IMG/VR virus record: IMGVR_UViG_3300014775_002125
Span: 32,001-96,000 of that record
Direction: 5' to 3' (one strand)
DNA length: 64,000 nt
From: a virus
In this document: positions 4,991-60,989 of the stretch, piece after piece
How the letters are laid out: each line of letters opens with the position of its first letter
How positions within the stretch are numbered: position 1 is the first letter of the stretch
Position numbers and translations under genes: made by a program
The notes under the pieces: generated by a model
Databases searched by the model: none
Seen by the model: only the letters and a program-made list of their open reading frames with translations
What the model was told of the DNA's origin: nothing

Positions 4991-5380
4991 ATGGGGCTAT
5001 CGACTAAACTACCACTCACATACTCTGAGCGTTACGGATTCTACAGTCAGAACGAAGAGATTCAGGAGCAGATTCGTCAGAATCTCAAAGACTTACTCTT
5101 AACTGCTCCCGGCGAGCGTTTTATCGAACTGGATTATGGAGTCGGCCTGTACGCCTATCTGTTCGAGCCAATGACTGGTAGAACCTTACAGTCTCTTAGA
5201 GACACTATAGGTGCTCAGGTGGCGACCTATATGCCATACATTGAAATTAGGAACTTAAGCGTCAATGAAGGTACGGATAATTTTGGCGGAGGTGCTGCTT
5301 TGTCTGTCGTTTTGGATTACCGTATCACACCGCTGGGCGAAGACGGTGTGGACTATTTAGAAGTAGAGATTAAACAATGA
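4991..5380 (+). CDS. gp25: Baseplate wedge protein, gp25/GpW-like
   Basis: IRQNLKDLLLTAPGER...YGVGL..YLFE...YMPYIEI signature; AGGAG Shine-Dalgarno site upstream. Confidence 0.9.
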   Translation: MGLSTKLPLTYSERYGFYSQNEEIQEQIRQNLKDLLLTAPGERFIELDYGVGLYAYLFEPMTGRTLQSLRDTIGAQVATYMPYIEIRNLSVNEGTDNFGGGAALSVVLDYRITPLGEDGVDYLEVEIKQ

Positions 5381-11700: not shown

Positions 11701-14700
11701 ACAGAATGAGAAGCACGAAAAGGATCTGTTGTCTTTTGAGATTTCTAGAGAAAGATCATTAGATTCAGTTATTTACGAGCAGACCTCCCCAGATGAGATT
11801 GCGAGAGTTATTGGTAAACCTACAAGCCATTACGAACAAAGCTACCCTGCACTTCAAAAGAAATCACGAGAGTTCTTTGATGATGCTACAGAAATTAGAA
11901 CACATGAGCAGTTTTTTGAGTTCTATAAGTGGGTGGATAGTACTGTAAAAGAAATCCTAGATAACTTTGTACAGATCTCAACACCTAAAACTGATGCTTG
12001 GAACACTGTAGAGAGCCATGCCTTAGAGCGCGATAAGCTAGACTGGAAGCTCCCTATTTTGAAAACCATCACCTCTACCCATGGACAGTTCGGGAATAGC
12101 AATGAGAGGTCTTTTAGGTGGTCTAAAGAGCATCGTCCTGTAGGTGGGTCACAAGCAGAAAATGGAGACTGGTGGAGAAAGAGAGCTACTAGGGATGGAG
12201 ACCTGACTGTTGGCGCCTCTGTAGATGCCGATAGAGAGACTTTGAGACAGCGAATCTTCACTGACAGCTACTACTCAAGCTCTAATGATCCAGTCTATCA
12301 GGTCGCTAAGAGTCATCCAACAACTGGGACTTATGTACATCGACCAGACTACTACAGAAACTTTGGGAAACAGCAGGGCACAAAGCTCGTCAAAGGAAAT
12401 AGCTCTAAGTTCATTACCTACAAAAACCGAGATATGTTCAAGAGCAACATCAAGGTGGACGGTGAGAGGGTTGCTTTTAACATCCCCAAAGAAATCTACC
12501 TAATTTTCTCAGCTTCTTACAAGAGAGACGTTGATGTAGATACCAATGTAGTGATTAAGCGAAGAGCAGTTTACAAGGCTCGCTCTGAGATGGGTCGTGA
12601 AGACTATATTTCCGCTGACGCTAACAGAATTATGCCCTTCAAGATCTATTCTGCTAGCATTGATGGGGGTTACAGCGATAGCCTTGCAACTAACTTTACG
12701 AGTGGGTCGGACATTACTAACCTCCACCAAGACTATGCAGACGACATTGAAGCCACACAGATGCAAGGAACATTCTCAGAGAGGTTTGTCGGTGGCCGTT
12801 CAGTTCGTCACGTCCCTGTAAACTCTGGAAACGACTCAAGGTCAACACGCCCAGAAGAGTTTCACATCCTTATTGGTAACTTGTCGATCCCCACAGGTAC
12901 TATCGGTGTTACTGGTCCTGACTATCCTATTGGTGGTACTGCTGGGTACCCCGCGTGGAGCTACCCAAGAGCCCAATATTACCGAGCAGTCCGACAGAAG
13001 ACACCGATCAGCGTAAAGAACTACAAAATGACCACGAGTTCTTTTGGTAACTTTACGAATAACCACCAGATTCTATTTGTCAACAAGGACCACTCTCTAC
13101 AACATTGGTTCAGAGATAACTTAACGTTCTCTCAGAGTGCTTCTCCTTTTGTTACTGGCGCCGTAGACTACTTAGTACCAACGAGTTCTAAGCTAGAGTC
13201 GCATTATGTACAGAGATTTAGTTCTCCCGGTGGTTTTGATAGTAACTTCTTGGATTATGAGACCTCACAGTACTCTCCATACAACTCTGTGAACTATCGT
13301 AACCTTAATGTGCGAATCCCAAGAAACGAGTTGTTCAAGAGGCACTCAGGACAGTTCGGTGTAGACATTGATAACAGCACTGTAGGGGCTTTCCATAAGG
13401 TTCCTCGTAACAGTTTTGTAAGAGTAGAGAATTCAGGGTCTTCTACTGCCGAAACTACTAAGTATGACAACGAGTTTATCCAACATGCGATCCCAAGGAA
13501 GTGGAAAGCATACCATTGGATCACTCAGTCTTACACTGGCAGCGAGATTTACACAGAACCGACCGAATCACTACGAGGATACATTGAAGATCCCGGATTT
13601 ATTCGTGATTACACCCTTAGCGGCAACACTGGATCATTCTCAGTCAGTACTTTTAGTCAGAAGTCGTTCAATACCTCTTCATTTACTTTAGAAAACACTA
13701 AAGTTACTGACATTTATACGGCAGCAGACCATGAGATGCTTAACTCTTACCTAAACTCTGAACACTCTAAGTTTATGTACAGCCCCTTGATCCAAACTAG
13801 AGTTGCTGAGAGACTTTTGAGGAACAAAAAGGACGCTTACAACCTCTTCCAAGTGTCTGAAGTGTTTGACAATGACCACTCTGTGAACTCTTTTATCACT
13901 TACGAAGAGTCTCCCTTGAAGTTCGACAAGCCTTTCCGCTCTAAACTAGTAAGCGGTGAGCAGACCTACAACTTTACCTATGCTGGGCTCGCAGAACGCT
14001 ATAATTTTGCTGACAAACGCATTGGTGCAGCACTTGGTATGCCTGAAGACCCTAAAAAGCAGTTTGTCTACAGTAAACTTATGGAATTAGAGGCTGAAGG
14101 TGACTTTGAGACCGTATATGGGGACCACCAAGAGCTTGTTTATTCCAAGAAATTGTTCCCAAGACTCCAGAATTACGGCCTAAAACGCAACAGATTAAGA
14201 GAAAACTACACAGAAGTTGCTGGTACTGGGTCAAATGGTTACGACAGAGTACTCAATGACCGTAGAACCTTCTGGAAAGACACTGACAAGAGCCGTTCTA
14301 GTCACCTAAACGTACTTGGAGAGGGTTGGGGTAGGAACTACTGGCCTTTGGGCAGTAACAACTACGTTACACACGCTCTTGATGGTAACTACTATGAGAT
14401 TTTTGGTGGTGGCTCTTATGTTACTATTGAAAACGAGGAAACCGCTGAACTTTCTCTCTCTTATCTAGTTTCGGCAGGTGGCTTTAGCTATCCTGATGTC
14501 TTGATCCATTCTATGTTTGGTACTGGTCAGGCTACTGGGTCATTTCAGGGGACCTCTTATGGTGATGCGGTTGATTCAGCGTACTACACGACTCACATTG
14601 CAACCACACCCTTCGTTTATGGGGTGAGTCTAGGTAGATTCACTGGGTTTATTTACCCTTATGACACTGAGCAAATCTCTGGTAAGTCTCCTATGTACGA

Positions 14701-46189: not shown

Positions 46190-47476
46190 ATGTCTTATCC
46201 AGAGTTAACACCCACAAGCAATAGTTCAAAGTCTATCTTGCCATCTACAGGTTCGTTCACAGATGTCGATAGTGCCTGTCCTTTGAGGCTTTATTCAGAT
46301 TCTAGTAGTCCTCTATACAGTGCAGAGTTTATCACAGGTGCAGTTCAACAAGTTACCTACACTTATCGCAAACTCGGAGGAGACACACTAGATCTAGAAA
46401 TCCTACCTCAGACTGTTTACGCAGCTTTTGAGGACGCTGTGATCGAGTATAGCTATATCAGCAACCTGTACACGGCTCGAAACTACATGGGGTCAATGTT
46501 AGGTCAGAACACCTCTTCATTCGACCACAAGGGAGAATATGAGTCTGGGTCGTTCAGTAGCTCTATGGGCGGGAAGAACGCAGCTTTAGTTTATCCTAAA
46601 TTTGATTACTCTTACCAGAGGCGAGTAGGAATGTTGGCAGCACACGAGGCTAACCTTAATGGTGATCGTCCAGTGTATTCAGCCTCTATTGACTTGACTG
46701 ATGGGATTCAGGATTACGACTTACAGGCTATTATTTCAGCTTCAGCAGCGTCTGGTAGTGTTCCTTACGCCGACATTGGGAACAAAAAGATTAATGTGCG
46801 TAAAGTTTATTATAAATCTCCCAGAACACAGTGGAGATTCTTTGGGTATGGATTTGGAGGCTACCACGGGAACGTCACTGGATATGGTTCATGGAGTGAT
46901 GTGACTTCCTTTGAGATTATCCCTAACTGGCAGAACAAGTTAGCAGCACAGGCTTACGAGGATTCATGGTACACAAGGATTTCTCATTACTCCTATGAAA
47001 TTAAAAACAACAAGCTCAGAATTTTCCCACTACCAGAGACTTGGAGTGCCAGTAAGATTTGGATTGAGTTTTATGTAGGTGTTAATAGTTTTGTAGAGAC
47101 TTCAGGTTCAAACGAAGACTCTGGATTGAATGGCGTAAATAGCTTAAACAACGTACCATACAGTAACTTGCCCTACAATTCTATTAACTCTATTGGTAAA
47201 CAGTGGATTCGTCGTTATGCTCTTGCTAGTACCTTAGAGACTCTTGGCTTAAACAGAAGTAAGTTCGGTACGATCCCAATCCCCGGAGAAAGTGTAACTC
47301 TAAATGGTGGCGACTTAATTACAAGAGCTAGGGAAGACAAAGAGAAGCTAATCGAACAACTAAAAGCGATCTTCGAAGAGTTGACACCACAGAAGATTGT
47401 AGAGACTGATAAGGCCATTGCTGACGCTGTAAACGGCACTCTGGTTAAAGTTCCTAGACTATTTTATGTAGGTTAA
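46190..47476 (+). CDS. gp13: Neck / head-completion protein (gp13-like)
   Basis: RKLGG..LDLEI...A..EY, WIRRYALA...LG..RSKF..IP.PG..VTLNG motifs; start reassigned to the ATG at 46190. Confidence 0.85.
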   Translation: MSYPELTPTSNSSKSILPSTGSFTDVDSACPLRLYSDSSSPLYSAEFITGAVQQVTYTYRKLGGDTLDLEILPQTVYAAFEDAVIEYSYISNLYTARNYMGSMLGQNTSSFDHKGEYESGSFSSSMGGKNAALVYPKFDYSYQRRVGMLAAHEANLNGDRPVYSASIDLTDGIQDYDLQAIISASAASGSVPYADIGNKKINVRKVYYKSPRTQWRFFGYGFGGYHGNVTGYGSWSDVTSFEIIPNWQNKLAAQAYEDSWYTRISHYSYEIKNNKLRIFPLPETWSASKIWIEFYVGVNSFVETSGSNEDSGLNGVNSLNNVPYSNLPYNSINSIGKQWIRRYALASTLETLGLNRSKFGTIPIPGESVTLNGGDLITRAREDKEKLIEQLKAIFEELTPQKIVETDKAIADAVNGTLVKVPRLFYVG

Positions 47477-57033: not shown

Positions 57034-59487
57034 ATGGTTCAAAAAAAAGGTTTTTTCCAGAAGATAAAGGAAGGTATTTTTGGACTTTGGACAAGTAATA
57101 CTGTCCAAGCTAAACCAACAACAAAAGACGCAGAACGTTGGAAGGCTCAGAGTTGGCTATTGGATAACATACCCACGCAAGAGAACATAGCCTTCGATGG
57201 TATCTTAAACGTTGCTGCTGACCCTCACTTAGTCCTATCTACCCTGCACAACTCTAGGGGGTTGTCAAGTTTTGTAGAGGATATTTCTAATAGTGAATTG
57301 TCCTCTCTTGTTCCTTATATTAAACTATTCAGAGTCATTAGGGATAAAAAAAAGGTTATCGAACAAGAGCTTTACTTCGATACCCACCTGAATAATGAGC
57401 AGATCGACGCCATCTTCAAAAAAAGAACAGGTAGAGGTGGTGGTGTAGGGATTAAGAAGTTTGACTTGAAGTATACTGGTGTAGACCCTGCTGCGGCCAG
57501 AACAGTCATCGAATGTGACCTAGAGATTTACTTTAGTTCTCTACAAGAACTCGCTCGTAAGCAGTCCAATAACGTAGCTTTTATTGACCTAATCTTACCC
57601 AACATAGCGAACGCAGGGCCAGCTTCTCAGATTGAACCACAAGACTACCAGTTAAAAGCTGAGTTTGGATGGAGTGTTCCTAATGCCAACAACCCAGCAT
57701 TCAGAAACAACAAAGATCTATTAAACGCCATTGAAAACAACAAGTTAACTATTTACCTGTCAATGAAAAGGCATACTATTAGCTTTGATAACTTGGGTGG
57801 TGCGACTCTACAAGCATCTTATCAAGGCTCTATGGAATCTATCTTCTCTCAGGAAGCTACAGACATTCTTAAGAGTACTGATAATTTTAAAGTTAAAGAC
57901 GGGAATGAAAAACTGCCCGCAAAAATAGCTAAAAACAAGATTAAGAAACTTAAGGCAGATCGCAAAAAGCAAAAAACAAGGAGAGATCGCAAAGATCTAA
58001 CAGATCAAATAAGAAAACTTGAAGGAGCATACCAACAAGCTCTCTCAGCTAAAAAATCTGAGTTGTATCAATCAATCCTAAATGAAATAATGAGTGATGG
58101 TGGATTGTATGCTGTGAAAGTAGAGGAGTCAGACTTTCAACTTTCCACACTACCACCGGGAATTAAAAATAAACTTGGTGGCGCTGGAGGATTGGGAAGT
58201 CTTCTTGGAAAGAGTTCAAAGAAGAAGCGGAAAAATAAACGTACATTTCTAAAAAAACTTAAAAACAGAAAAAAGCCGAGATATTTCAAAGGTAAGGGAA
58301 AAAAAGTCAAAAAACTAAGCCTTAGCGGAAGTAAAGAGGAAAGGCTCAGAAAGATATCACTAAATTTCGTTTTACCGAAACCGGAAAAGGGAAAAAGAAC
58401 AATTTATTTTATGTATCTTGGTGACATATTGAGGGTTGTTAGGAAGAGGATAGGACCCAGCGTTGATGCTGAGTTTAATTTTAGATTGATAACTGGAGAT
58501 TTGGAATTAAGTGGATATGAAGTAAACATAAGCAATATACCGATTTCAGTTGAATTATTTCAAGCCTTCACACTAAAATATCTCGTTAGAACCTCTAAAA
58601 CTAAGTGGTTTTTTGGGGATTTTATCAATCAAATACTAACAGGGCTTGTAGCACCTGTTTTAAATAACATCGCGGCTACAGAGCATGGGAACAGTGATAA
58701 GAAAAACCCTGTCACCAGTAACCCTAAGAGATATAAGATGGGTGTCAGCTTCATCAATGTTGGTACAGATGGAAAAAACAAGTGCGTATTTACTAATAGT
58801 AAGAATCCGTACAAAAAGAATGAAAATAGAAAGTTTGATAATGGTCAAGTCAGGAAAATAAAACCAGCCTCAAATAGAACAGAAATGATAACCTATCTTT
58901 ACGTACACTGCATGGATCACACGAGAGCCTTAAGAGAAAGGAACTACCAGAAAGACCGTGAGGAAGGAATCTATCATTTTTATCTGGGGAGTAATCGAGG
59001 AATTCTAAAGTCCATGAAGTTCGAACAGCAGAACCTAAAGTACTATGAAGTTGCTCAGGCTCAAGGAAAGGATCTAACAAAATACAAAAGAATCTACAAC
59101 GCAACAATAGAGACATTCTACTGTAATGGATTCTTTCCCGGAAACTTCTTATATCTTGATAGTAGATCTTTAGGTTTTTCTGAAGATTCTAATGTTGATC
59201 AGGCAGCAATGATGGGTATTGGTGGTTATTTTAGGATTAAAGGCCAGTCTATTTCATTTGCTTCTGGTAAACTCGACATGACCATGAACTGCACATGGGA
59301 ATCTTCTGGGTTGCCGTCACCTAAAGGTAGGAAAGCTGCTGCCAATAATCCCAAATCTTCTGGATTGCCGTCACCTAAAGGTAGGAAAGCTGCTGCCAAT
59401 AAGCCCGAATCTACAACAAACTATCCCTATTACTGGAAGGTAACAAAAGGAGGACATATAAAAAAGGTAATTGACTTGACAAAATAG
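57034..59487 (+). CDS. Probable baseplate hub protein (gp27/late-control D-like) with Lys-rich insertions
   Basis: Follows the gp53-like gene; C-terminal Y.A.IE.....F.PG...Y...GIGGYFRI hub-like pattern. Confidence 0.55.
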   Translation: MVQKKGFFQKIKEGIFGLWTSNTVQAKPTTKDAERWKAQSWLLDNIPTQENIAFDGILNVAADPHLVLSTLHNSRGLSSFVEDISNSELSSLVPYIKLFRVIRDKKKVIEQELYFDTHLNNEQIDAIFKKRTGRGGGVGIKKFDLKYTGVDPAAARTVIECDLEIYFSSLQELARKQSNNVAFIDLILPNIANAGPASQIEPQDYQLKAEFGWSVPNANNPAFRNNKDLLNAIENNKLTIYLSMKRHTISFDNLGGATLQASYQGSMESIFSQEATDILKSTDNFKVKDGNEKLPAKIAKNKIKKLKADRKKQKTRRDRKDLTDQIRKLEGAYQQALSAKKSELYQSILNEIMSDGGLYAVKVEESDFQLSTLPPGIKNKLGGAGGLGSLLGKSSKKKRKNKRTFLKKLKNRKKPRYFKGKGKKVKKLSLSGSKEERLRKISLNFVLPKPEKGKRTIYFMYLGDILRVVRKRIGPSVDAEFNFRLITGDLELSGYEVNISNIPISVELFQAFTLKYLVRTSKTKWFFGDFINQILTGLVAPVLNNIAATEHGNSDKKNPVTSNPKRYKMGVSFINVGTDGKNKCVFTNSKNPYKKNENRKFDNGQVRKIKPASNRTEMITYLYVHCMDHTRALRERNYQKDREEGIYHFYLGSNRGILKSMKFEQQNLKYYEVAQAQGKDLTKYKRIYNATIETFYCNGFFPGNFLYLDSRSLGFSEDSNVDQAAMMGIGGYFRIKGQSISFASGKLDMTMNCTWESSGLPSPKGRKAAANNPKSSGLPSPKGRKAAANKPESTTNYPYYWKVTKGGHIKKVIDLTK
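59300..59412 (+). repeat. 54-bp in-frame tandem duplication (SSGLPSPKGRKAAAN.P.)
   Basis: Two near-identical copies starting at 59301 and 59355. Confidence 0.95.
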
Positions 59488-59951
59488 CCTACTAATAGAA
59501 ACTAAAAACACATACTAACTGTAGAACCATTTAGCAACTATTAGTTAAGCCGTAACCCTAAGTGGAGGCTTCTTAATAGCTTCTAATTAGTACCTTAAAG
59601 TTTCTAGTAGTTCCTTTAAGTCGATTATACTGAGACTTTAGCACAAAAACTCTGATAATTTCCAAGTAGATTCAAACTATTTTATAACTCATTGATTCCT
59701 CTAGGGAACTTTTTTCCAAAAAAACATCTCAGATTTATCTGAATAGACCTCTCCTTAAAAACAAACACAAGCAAACTCAGTTTAAAGAACTACCTAATGT
59801 TCATTCCGTAGGCTTAATCACTTCCATCTTAGGGATTCCAGTGATTGGGAAAACAATGTAGTAGTTCGAATACGATATCAGGAATAGTTATCTTAGTTAA
59901 GAAGATTATACAAAGAAGTAAAATCTGTGTCAAGAACTATTTTATAACTAC
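59488..59951. other. Largest non-coding interval in the window; structured; candidate ncRNA or replication origin
   Basis: No ORF >=60 aa. It contains two nested hairpins, a palindrome, a 15-bp direct repeat and a leftward consensus promoter. Confidence 0.5.
59905..59933 (-). promoter_or_regulatory. Perfect-consensus sigma70 promoter pointing leftward into the non-coding region
   Basis: Reverse strand reads TTGACA-cagattttacttctttg(17 nt)-TATAAT. Confidence 0.85.
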
Positions 59952-59975: not shown

Positions 59976-60989
59976 ATGAAGACAAAGACACCCCCAGTAA
60001 ACGACAGAGATATATTTCAGGAAGTGGAAGCTGACTATGGTTACATCTACGGTGAAGCTGAGAATTCCTATGTAGATTTCAATCAGGTAGCAGCGGTAGA
60101 CCTCCAGAAAACTCAAGAGGTGAACGATAGGTTTCTCAGCGACACTTATAGTTGGCTTCCAGTAAAGGACGGTAAATTATACGGAAAAATACTACAGGAC
60201 TACTCAATTCGCTCTTATAATAGTGGTCTAGGAGTTTTATTTAGAGTTGAGATGGCGAATAAACTTGAAGAAACTTTAGAAATCTTTAAAGTTCGCTCTG
60301 GTGGTTTCACTGTCCCCAAGGAAATCAACATCAACATCTCAGACGAATCTACCATTTACTCAGAATTCTACGATAAAACTTTAGAAATCTTTAAAGAACG
60401 CCTTGACAATAAAAAATGTTCTGGTATAAGAGAGTTCAGCAGGATACTTTTAGAGGACAAGAGGATTCCAGATTCTATTTGTTTCCCCTTGTACTACCTT
60501 TTTAAAACAGATGACCAGCTAAATCCTCTCAGTTTGACTTGGACAGACACTAGTGCTTCTGTTTACGGCCCAGAGTTTTACGATGACTTAAACTTTAGGT
60601 ATTTCTTAAAATTCATGTACACTCGTGGTTTTCTAGTAGACCTACACAACCCTACTATGATACACTACAAGGCAACTCAGAAGGAAATCTTAGAGAACTC
60701 AGTGCCTATGAACGCTGAAGAGTCGCTAAAAGAAACGCTAGAGAACCTTTGGAGTGGTCTAGGCAACATCAATGAGATTCCTAAAACCTATTATAAATCA
60801 AGGGACTACAAGAAACTCCTAAAAAACATCTTGACAAAATACAATGTAGCGAGTAATGTTCCTAGTAATCTTTTAGGAAACAACAGCAGGTTCAACAAAT
60901 ACATCAGAGAGGCTACTAAGAGGATAATCAATGAGAGAAGTAACTCAGAAAATCGCACAATCAGCAAAGGAGACTCTCTGGTTTACTAA
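59976..60989 (+). CDS. Hypothetical protein
   Basis: ORF with AGGA upstream of the ATG at 59976; no recognisable catalytic motif. Confidence 0.65.
   Translation: MKTKTPPVNDRDIFQEVEADYGYIYGEAENSYVDFNQVAAVDLQKTQEVNDRFLSDTYSWLPVKDGKLYGKILQDYSIRSYNSGLGVLFRVEMANKLEETLEIFKVRSGGFTVPKEININISDESTIYSEFYDKTLEIFKERLDNKKCSGIREFSRILLEDKRIPDSICFPLYYLFKTDDQLNPLSLTWTDTSASVYGPEFYDDLNFRYFLKFMYTRGFLVDLHNPTMIHYKATQKEILENSVPMNAEESLKETLENLWSGLGNINEIPKTYYKSRDYKKLLKNILTKYNVASNVPSNLLGNNSRFNKYIREATKRIINERSNSENRTISKGDSLVY
60831..60859 (+). promoter_or_regulatory. Possible internal sigma70 promoter for the PolA-like gene
   Basis: TTGACA-N17-TAATGT about 70 nt upstream of the ATG at 60931. Confidence 0.35.

Follow-up and report, generated by a model that had tools for sequence, protein, structure and literature searches.

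The window analysed here is a stretch of 64,000 nucleotides, bases 32001-96000 of a 130,964-bp virus record (IMG/VR IMGVR_UViG_3300014775_002125) that is estimated to be 72% complete. The gene content of the record identifies the phage as a large myovirus: it includes genes for terminase, portal, protease, major head protein, sheath, tube, baseplate and primase, and also for SbcCD, helicase, ThyX, RNR, PhoH and Hsp20. The major head protein is of a distant T4 type. It shares 33% identity with that of Microcystis phage Mel-JY01 and, over part of its length, 45% with those of the Flavobacterium 'immuto' phages; related stretches in IMG/VR number 599, at 44-52%. Sequencing runs with near-identical DNA are labelled as marine, estuary and aquatic viral metagenomes. 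A greedy ORF map places 130 of the 137 ORFs on the plus strand.

The gene-free interval and its second copy

The longest gene-free interval of the window separates an 817-aa gene from a 337-aa gene. A preliminary description of this DNA had singled it out as the only long one, and the ORF map agrees: 464 nt are free of ORFs here, and the next intervals measure 284 and 240 nt. The same map bears out the earlier statement that the window holds no credible minus-strand gene. All coordinates given at that time, for the promoter, hairpins, loops, palindrome and 15-mer, match the sequence. The genes and repeated blocks at the locus are as follows.

57034..59487, plus strand: 817-aa tail/baseplate-module protein without an assigned family, whose stop codon directly adjoins the element
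59487..59947, no strand assigned: repeated non-coding element, copy 1, delimited by genome self-BLAST and pairwise alignment
59487..59705, minus strand: A-block, the nearly invariant half, with 8 substitutions between copies in its first 200 nt
59712..59947, minus strand: B-block, the diverged half with conserved islands, 71% identical between copies
59976..60989, plus strand: 337-aa downstream protein (p337), with only two relatives, at 97% and 67% identity
60931..62061, plus strand: short family-A DNA polymerase relative of 376 aa (mini-PolA), recognised by Atlas and by its homologues
12197-12783 of the genome record, outside the window and 79 kb upstream: element copy 2, located by self-BLAST

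Sequence comparison shows that a non-coding element of 460-590 bp exists in two diverged copies, of which the interval is one. Self-BLAST aligns copy 1 with copy 2 at 92.5% identity over 239 nt and then at 70.9% over 237 nt. Between the two blocks copy 2 carries about 129 additional AT-rich bases, which look like local duplications, at a place where copy 1 has about 17 nt. The other main internal repeats of this genome are a MORN-repeat gene family with at least five paralogous copies and repeated promoter-bearing spacers, at 94.9 kb and 124.7-127.6 kb of the genome.

Two complete relatives, G001 and G002 (187 and 194 kb), share the gene order at the locus: wedge protein, large tail-module protein, 337-aa homologue, short family-A polymerase. 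In both, merely 10-12 nt and no spacer separate the large tail-module gene from the 337-aa homologue. Copy 1 is therefore a lineage-specific insertion. The 817-aa protein has a weak homologue in G002 by tblastn, and G001 has an ORF at the same place with no detected homology. The 3' end of the 817-aa gene contains a 54-nt tandem duplication (59300-59412, 2.1 copies, 94% matches), and strain contigs diverge at 59315. The 67%-identical relative of p337 resides on a 7.7-kb ENA contig; Pfam, PHROGs and Atlas give nothing for p337, and a protein search of IMG/VR and genome contigs returned no relative of either the 337-aa or the 817-aa protein. The polymerase, previously placed about 1 kb from the interval, is confirmed there with an Atlas feature score of 0.99 and a structural TM of 0.81 to PF00476 clusters. 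A direct Pfam scan of the 376-aa ORF was negative, and 17 homologues at 28-35% identity carry PF00476. This ORF overlaps the 337-aa ORF by 59 nt, and the pair closes the tail module in each of the three genomes, where one would hardly expect a polymerase.

Both copies of the element occur in other strains, as contigs from three runs extend from the A-block into the flanks of copy 2. Between strains the element differs at 6 of 427 positions, compared with 125 of 3042 in the upstream gene. Contigs from two RNA and two DNA runs span the element and carry no strand, ends or level. The RNA libraries yield contigs of up to 67 kb, and DNA carry-over is therefore likely. An apparent joint between 59686 and 59928 in one run turned out to be a copy-2 contig aligned on copy 1 and not a deletion variant. 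One RNA-library contig opens with sequencing-adapter letters joined at 59924; this join could mark a recurrent fragment end, although contigs of the sister RNA library bridge the spot.

Searches for homologues gave a uniform result. Blastn against GenBank phages returned no homologue of the element, and only chance-level matches (E >= 0.02) for a 50-nt promoter query. Three exact element patterns had 0 matches in IMG/VR. Fifteen metagenome-contig loci retrieved for one element pattern were discarded as chance, being alike only over the 20-21 nt of the pattern itself. BLAST of the element against five large related records found nothing below E 0.08, and when hairpins and blocks were compared with 202 loci (921 kb) by a sensitive blastn, the chance loci alone came up. 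In the collections searched, neither the A-block nor the B-block has a homologue outside this lineage.

Promoters and promoter-like motifs

The minus strand of the element carries the following sites.

59905..59933, minus strand: P1, perfect sigma70-type promoter (TTGACA, 17 nt, TATAAT), 12/12 matches
59935..59949, minus strand: UP-like upstream module of P1, reading AGTTATAAAATAGTT on the minus strand; one copy of a 15-bp direct repeat
59675..59689, minus strand: second copy of the upstream module, at the head of the A-block, with decayed -35/-10 (TTGAAT, no -10)
59635..59665, minus strand: P2, promoter-like site, TTGGAAATTA ... TTGTGC TAAAGT, with an extended -10; putative function assigned from its class

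P1 had been reported as a perfect TTGACA-N17-TATAAT at 59933-59905, and it is indeed the sole 12/12 match among 11 promoter-like sites in 5 kb. Transcription from it would start near 59898. The 131-kb record contains three such perfect sites on both strands taken together, against about 0.06-0.2 expected from base composition. The hexamers of P1 are conserved 12/12 in copy 2, compared with just 8/17 positions of the spacer. Judged by this pattern, P1 is a real and conserved promoter. In the complete relatives, perfect promoters stand on the coding strand in 6 of 6 cases (G001) and 8 of 9 (G002), and such sites therefore appear to be used in this phage family. The third perfect site of the record is at genome position 9467, outside the window, on the plus strand inside a 72-aa ORF. 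A 657-aa gene starts 79 nt downstream of it, and this gene and the inverted dUTPase gene are convergent.

The exact 15-bp direct repeat at 59675 and 59935, noted earlier, does exceed chance; it is, however, not an independent repeat but the upstream module of the promoter. The genome contains four copies of this 15-mer, all within the two copies of the element. An 18-mer that joins the upstream module to part of the -35, TATAAAATAGTTCTTGAC, has 83 exact matches in IMG/VR. We read 80 of these 83 loci, which reduce to 55 distinct contexts in diverse viral contigs. In 43 of the 55, a -10 that agrees at 5/6 positions or more stands 16-18 nt further on, and 29 are perfect. Since the 15-mer recurs before -35 and -10 elements in other viral loci, it is a module of a widespread phage promoter design. 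One 115-kb contig has three copies of TATAAAATAGTTCTTGAC. The module is missing from the other forward promoters of this genome; it may be the sign of a common host group or of a promoter cassette that moves.

These observations bear on the idea that copy 1 is a by-product of promoter-cassette recombination, a part of the dUTPase upstream region deposited at this junction, where P1 may fire and nothing is selected. A lineage-specific insertion is what this idea would predict, and the internal structure of the element does resemble duplicated promoter modules. Other short, repeated, promoter-bearing intergenic pieces occur in this genome and in its relatives, and one study describes promoter cassettes of T4-type phages that recombine and move (PMC2839356). 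We nevertheless consider it quite unlikely, given hexamers that stayed intact while the spacer between them changed, and an A-block that is 96% identical while the B-block drifted to 71%. Moreover, the element diverges between strains no more than the adjoining coding DNA does.

A second motif could point to transcription in the opposite direction. ACTATTTA occurs on the coding and the opposite strand at a ratio of 10:0 in this genome, 13:0 in G001 and 26:1 in G002. It typically stands 12-110 nt before a start codon (6 of 10, 7 of 13 and 20 of 26 sites, compared with 1.2, 1.7 and 3.5 at random places).

Window positions 5353, 8661, 29545, 39240, 41864, 47459, 53453 and 62790, and elsewhere: ACTATTTA sites

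ACTATTTA is probably the phage-specific, perhaps late, promoter of the family. The record, which is 72% complete, has no recognisable gp55-like sigma factor. At 59936, 40 nt before the ATG at 59976, the plus strand reads AACTATTTTATAA, and one could imagine that this motif is a variant of ACTATTTA and drives p337 and mini-PolA while the rest of the interval serves as a leader. A four-T variant does precede a structural gene by 28 nt at window position 47459. Yet in the relatives the four-T variant occurs on either strand without bias (2:8 and 5:6), the same 18-mer is part of a sigma70 promoter facing the other way in 83 other loci, and two of the four motif copies have no downstream ORF. A forward-strand control region is highly improbable on this evidence.

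P2 differs from P1 in design. It reads TTGGAAATTA...TTGTGCTAAAGT and begins ten bases beyond the decayed upstream module of the A-block. Its -35 region (TTGGAAATTA) is non-canonical and common to three other promoters, whereas P1 is full consensus. Sites of this class occur at genome positions 17186, 21660 and 96039 on the plus strand and at 91665 and 12375 on the minus strand. The three plus-strand sites are intergenic and precede forward genes of the same genome; the one at 96039 is just past the end of the window. In this class CTTGGAAAT(T/A)A replaces the canonical -35 and is combined with an extended -10 (TTGTGnTAtaaT), an architecture reminiscent of activator-dependent middle promoters. 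A MotA-like gene was not found in the 72%-complete record.

The preliminary description also considered a transcription-primed origin. In such an origin, RNA from P1 or P2 would remain paired with the AT-rich DNA and serve as primer of the leading strand. In its favour, P1 is strong and has no gene to express, replication-related genes neighbour both copies (mini-PolA at copy 1, dUTPase at copy 2), and P2, like T4 middle promoters, lacks a canonical -35. The lowest-GC 60-mer of the genome (0.167) is in copy 2, and the minimum of copy 1 falls in the lowest 0.2%. T4 has one of its origins, oriG, inside a tail-fibre gene. T4 oriF and oriG consist of about 100 bp with a MotA-type middle promoter and an unwinding element at once after it, and T4 origins have little sequence in common with each other (PMC3016281). 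The element resembles them in having a promoter without obvious coding purpose and AT-rich DNA in a phage that is a distant relative of T4; it differs in that P1 is full consensus, the two copies are homologous and the AT stretch of copy 1 is not right after the promoter. The lowest-GC 60-mer of copy 1 is in fact the P1 region itself and not the DNA downstream. The AT-rich spacer, some 130 nt longer in copy 2, is replaced by about 17 nt in copy 1, which has no AT-rich DNA directly downstream of the promoter of the kind found in T4-type unwinding elements. Cumulative GC skew climbs monotonically with no inflection at either copy, the element contains no iterons, no initiator gene was recognised nearby, and the syntenic junction of G001 and G002 has no such locus. 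The case for an R-loop origin is thus weak, and we regard it as very unlikely.

Structure and coding potential of the predicted RNA

The following hairpins can be drawn on the minus strand, the inner hairpin being part of hairpin A.

59787..59867, minus strand: hairpin A, 81 nt in extended form, with stems of 7 (outer), 4 (middle), 7 (inner) and 3 (apical) bp
59816..59846, minus strand: inner hairpin AATCACT...AGTGATT, a 31-nt island in which a 1-nt indel in the apical loop is the sole difference between copies
59716..59760, minus strand: weak AU-rich terminator-like hairpin with a seven-U run, at the end of the B-block
59538..59579, minus strand: hairpin B, CTATTA/TAATAG enclosing AAGCC/GGCTT, present in the sequence

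The arms of hairpin A first described at 59787-93/59861-67 and 59816-22/59840-46 are present, and their pairing is kept in copy 2. Over the two copies 40 of 42 cells pair; three pairs are double-changed, one is single-changed and two cells are broken. The outer and middle stems have thus diverged in sequence with pairing retained. Two new pairs are G-U and would be mismatched if read on the plus strand, which favours the minus strand. The conservation of pairing with three compensatory pairs is suggestive for n=2 sequences, for which 63 of 500 shuffles did equally well. The 1-nt indel shifts the only frame that crosses the island of the inner hairpin, and this island is therefore not coding. 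The arms of hairpin B (59538-43/59574-79) are likewise as described; since this hairpin is inside the invariant A-block, nothing can be learned from its variation. A palindrome recorded at 59729-42 exists in copy 1 but is not retained in copy 2.

The proposal that the whole locus is structured fared less well. Folding energies were compared with dinucleotide shuffles. For copy 1 the z score is -1.60 on the minus strand (411 nt) and -1.54 on the plus strand, copy 2 has -0.65, and the A-block by itself ranges from -0.9 to -1.55; all these values are within the shuffle range. A kissing-loop interaction had been suggested as well. The loop pair in question (59556-66 with 59823-34) exists and scores about 18, and the best inverted match between the halves under the same scoring reaches 20 in copy 1 and 21 in copy 2, compared with shuffle means of 18.8 and 19.4. 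Of 1000 shuffles, 32% (copy 1) and 28% (copy 2) were equal or better, so loop complementarity beyond chance, as in a kissing loop of the ColE1 RNA I/RNA II type, is not found here. The terminator-like hairpin has a folding energy of -11 kcal/mol (z -2.04) in copy 1 and -7.5 kcal/mol (z -0.40) in copy 2, and a terminator scan reported no terminator-like site inside the element. Rfam gave 0 matches in the window at the gathering threshold. The best sub-threshold hits were unrelated snoRNA models with E 7-9 (copy 1) and 0.14 (copy 2). A CRISPR-repeat-like reading of the hairpin was dropped, as copy 1 has no Rfam CRISPR-DR match.

The transcript of P1 might still be a discrete structured sRNA of about 180 nt that extends from P1 to the U-run, exists in two paralogous copies and has its own function in trans, for example by binding a protein or RNA polymerase in a nut/put-like fashion, or by pairing with the hairpin-B loop of the A-block. 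Roughly 180 nt separate P1 from the U-run in either copy, and the 31-nt hairpin island is invariant, save for the indel in its apical loop, within a block of 71% identity whose outer stems show the compensatory changes. The nutL/nutR segments of lambda and the putL/putR segments of HK022 are pairs of similar, hairpin-bearing RNA segments shortly after strong early promoters. By analogy, the element also consists of two similar hairpin-bearing copies, each shortly behind a strong promoter; unlike nut and put, it has no identified boxA/boxB-like motif or N-like protein, and copy 1 has no downstream genes to benefit. An RNA of this kind is made unlikely by the weak, unconserved terminator, by a loop-loop match at chance level, and by the absence of an Rfam match, even with E up to 10. 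The hairpin alone has z scores of -0.04 and -1.61, and its loop motif recurs elsewhere in the genome 13 times compared with 8.6 in shuffles (2 mismatches), which is not beyond chance.

Signs of translation are lacking in both copies. Short frames differ, and no small ORF is conserved between them. A frame of 23-30 aa in the A-block was considered and rejected as coding, as two of three substitutions change the residue. In the 55 other contexts of the promoter, an ORF of at least 50 aa begins no more than 60 nt from the predicted transcription start in 29 cases and no more than 400 nt from it in 52 (maximum 393), whereas the first such ORF after P1 comes at 498 nt in copy 1 and 512 nt in copy 2. 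The one in copy 1 is an artefact, an antisense frame inside the 817-aa gene. On this basis, the product of P1 is non-coding, and a minus-strand RNA would be the most economical product of the interval.

The DNA further along the minus strand differs between the copies. Copy 1 is followed only by the 3' end of the 817-aa gene, in antisense. Copy 2 is followed by a 60-71-aa frame of doubtful reality and then by the dUTPase gene, the only sizeable minus-strand gene, with a strong Shine-Dalgarno site. This gene has its own 11/12 promoter just upstream, 500 nt nearer than P1, and therefore copy 2 needs no P1. In one relative the dUTPase gene is on the coding strand in a tight operon, which implies that the copy-2 locus has been rearranged too.

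Possible roles of the element

In lytic phages, early antisense or anti-late RNAs arise from host-type early promoters that read against late genes. In T4, antisense RNAs are a consequence of the opposite orientation of whole gene blocks. The element differs from this situation: the genome is otherwise one-directional, and its antisense promoter comes with a dedicated cassette that has been duplicated. Our literature search found no paper centred on early antisense or anti-late RNAs of lytic phages.

Among described systems, the PeSL (promoter-early stem-loop) cassettes of T4-type phages come closest. These are repeated, dispersed, recombination-prone intergenic cassettes at gene junctions, about 100 bp long and about 50 per genome, which stand shortly before the ORF they serve, face it and contain a GC-rich stem-loop terminator (PMC2839356; PMC4122927). 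The element is likewise a repeated intergenic regulatory cassette inserted at a gene junction, and likewise combines a strong sigma70-like promoter with AT-rich DNA ahead of the -35. In contrast to the cassettes described there, it measures 460-590 bp, exists in two copies, is directed against the genes with no ORF within about 500 nt downstream, and has only a weak AU-rich hairpin in place of a GC-rich stem-loop.

We tentatively prefer to see the element as a duplicated early-promoter cassette that gives rise to a non-coding antisense or leader RNA, a reading to which we assign a little short of an even chance. The cassette would be specific to this lineage and non-coding, with two diverged copies that face backwards in a mostly forward genome. 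At its core would be P1, which matches the host-sigma70 consensus and has an upstream module employed for early genes by many other phages. From the sequence we infer that P1 fires and launches an ORF-less minus-strand RNA with the conserved 81-nt hairpin. This RNA would meet the weak terminator and probably continue through the almost invariant 200-nt block that carries P2. At copy 2, transcription would proceed toward dUTPase. At copy 1 there would be nothing to express; the RNA would run antisense to the last part of the large tail-module gene, and transcription from P1 would collide with forward transcription entering p337 and mini-PolA. Located between the late structural operon and the genes that follow, copy 1 may act in cis through early antisense RNA or interference.

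A simple antisense role does not explain why the A-block is 96% identical; gene conversion could be the cause. A possible but doubtful alternative holds that the phage has two paralogous early ncRNA genes, acquired as a mobile cassette, each under a consensus host promoter and built around the conserved 81-nt hairpin, whose products would serve as trans regulators or RNA-polymerase modifiers, or as R-loop primers beside mini-PolA.

If the cassette is just a relic, the finding is an ordinary one. If P1 fires as predicted, the phage would provide a clear example of a promoter cassette that was copied to another junction and is directed there against the phage's own late operon, and not used for gene expression. 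It would then offer a simple, testable model of how the large, uncultured marine relatives of T4 could derive antisense control from mobile regulatory DNA. The motifs ACTATTTA, found family-wide, and TATAAAATAGTTCTTGAC, which is widely shared, provide an annotation aid for transcription units in hundreds of related metagenomic phage genomes.
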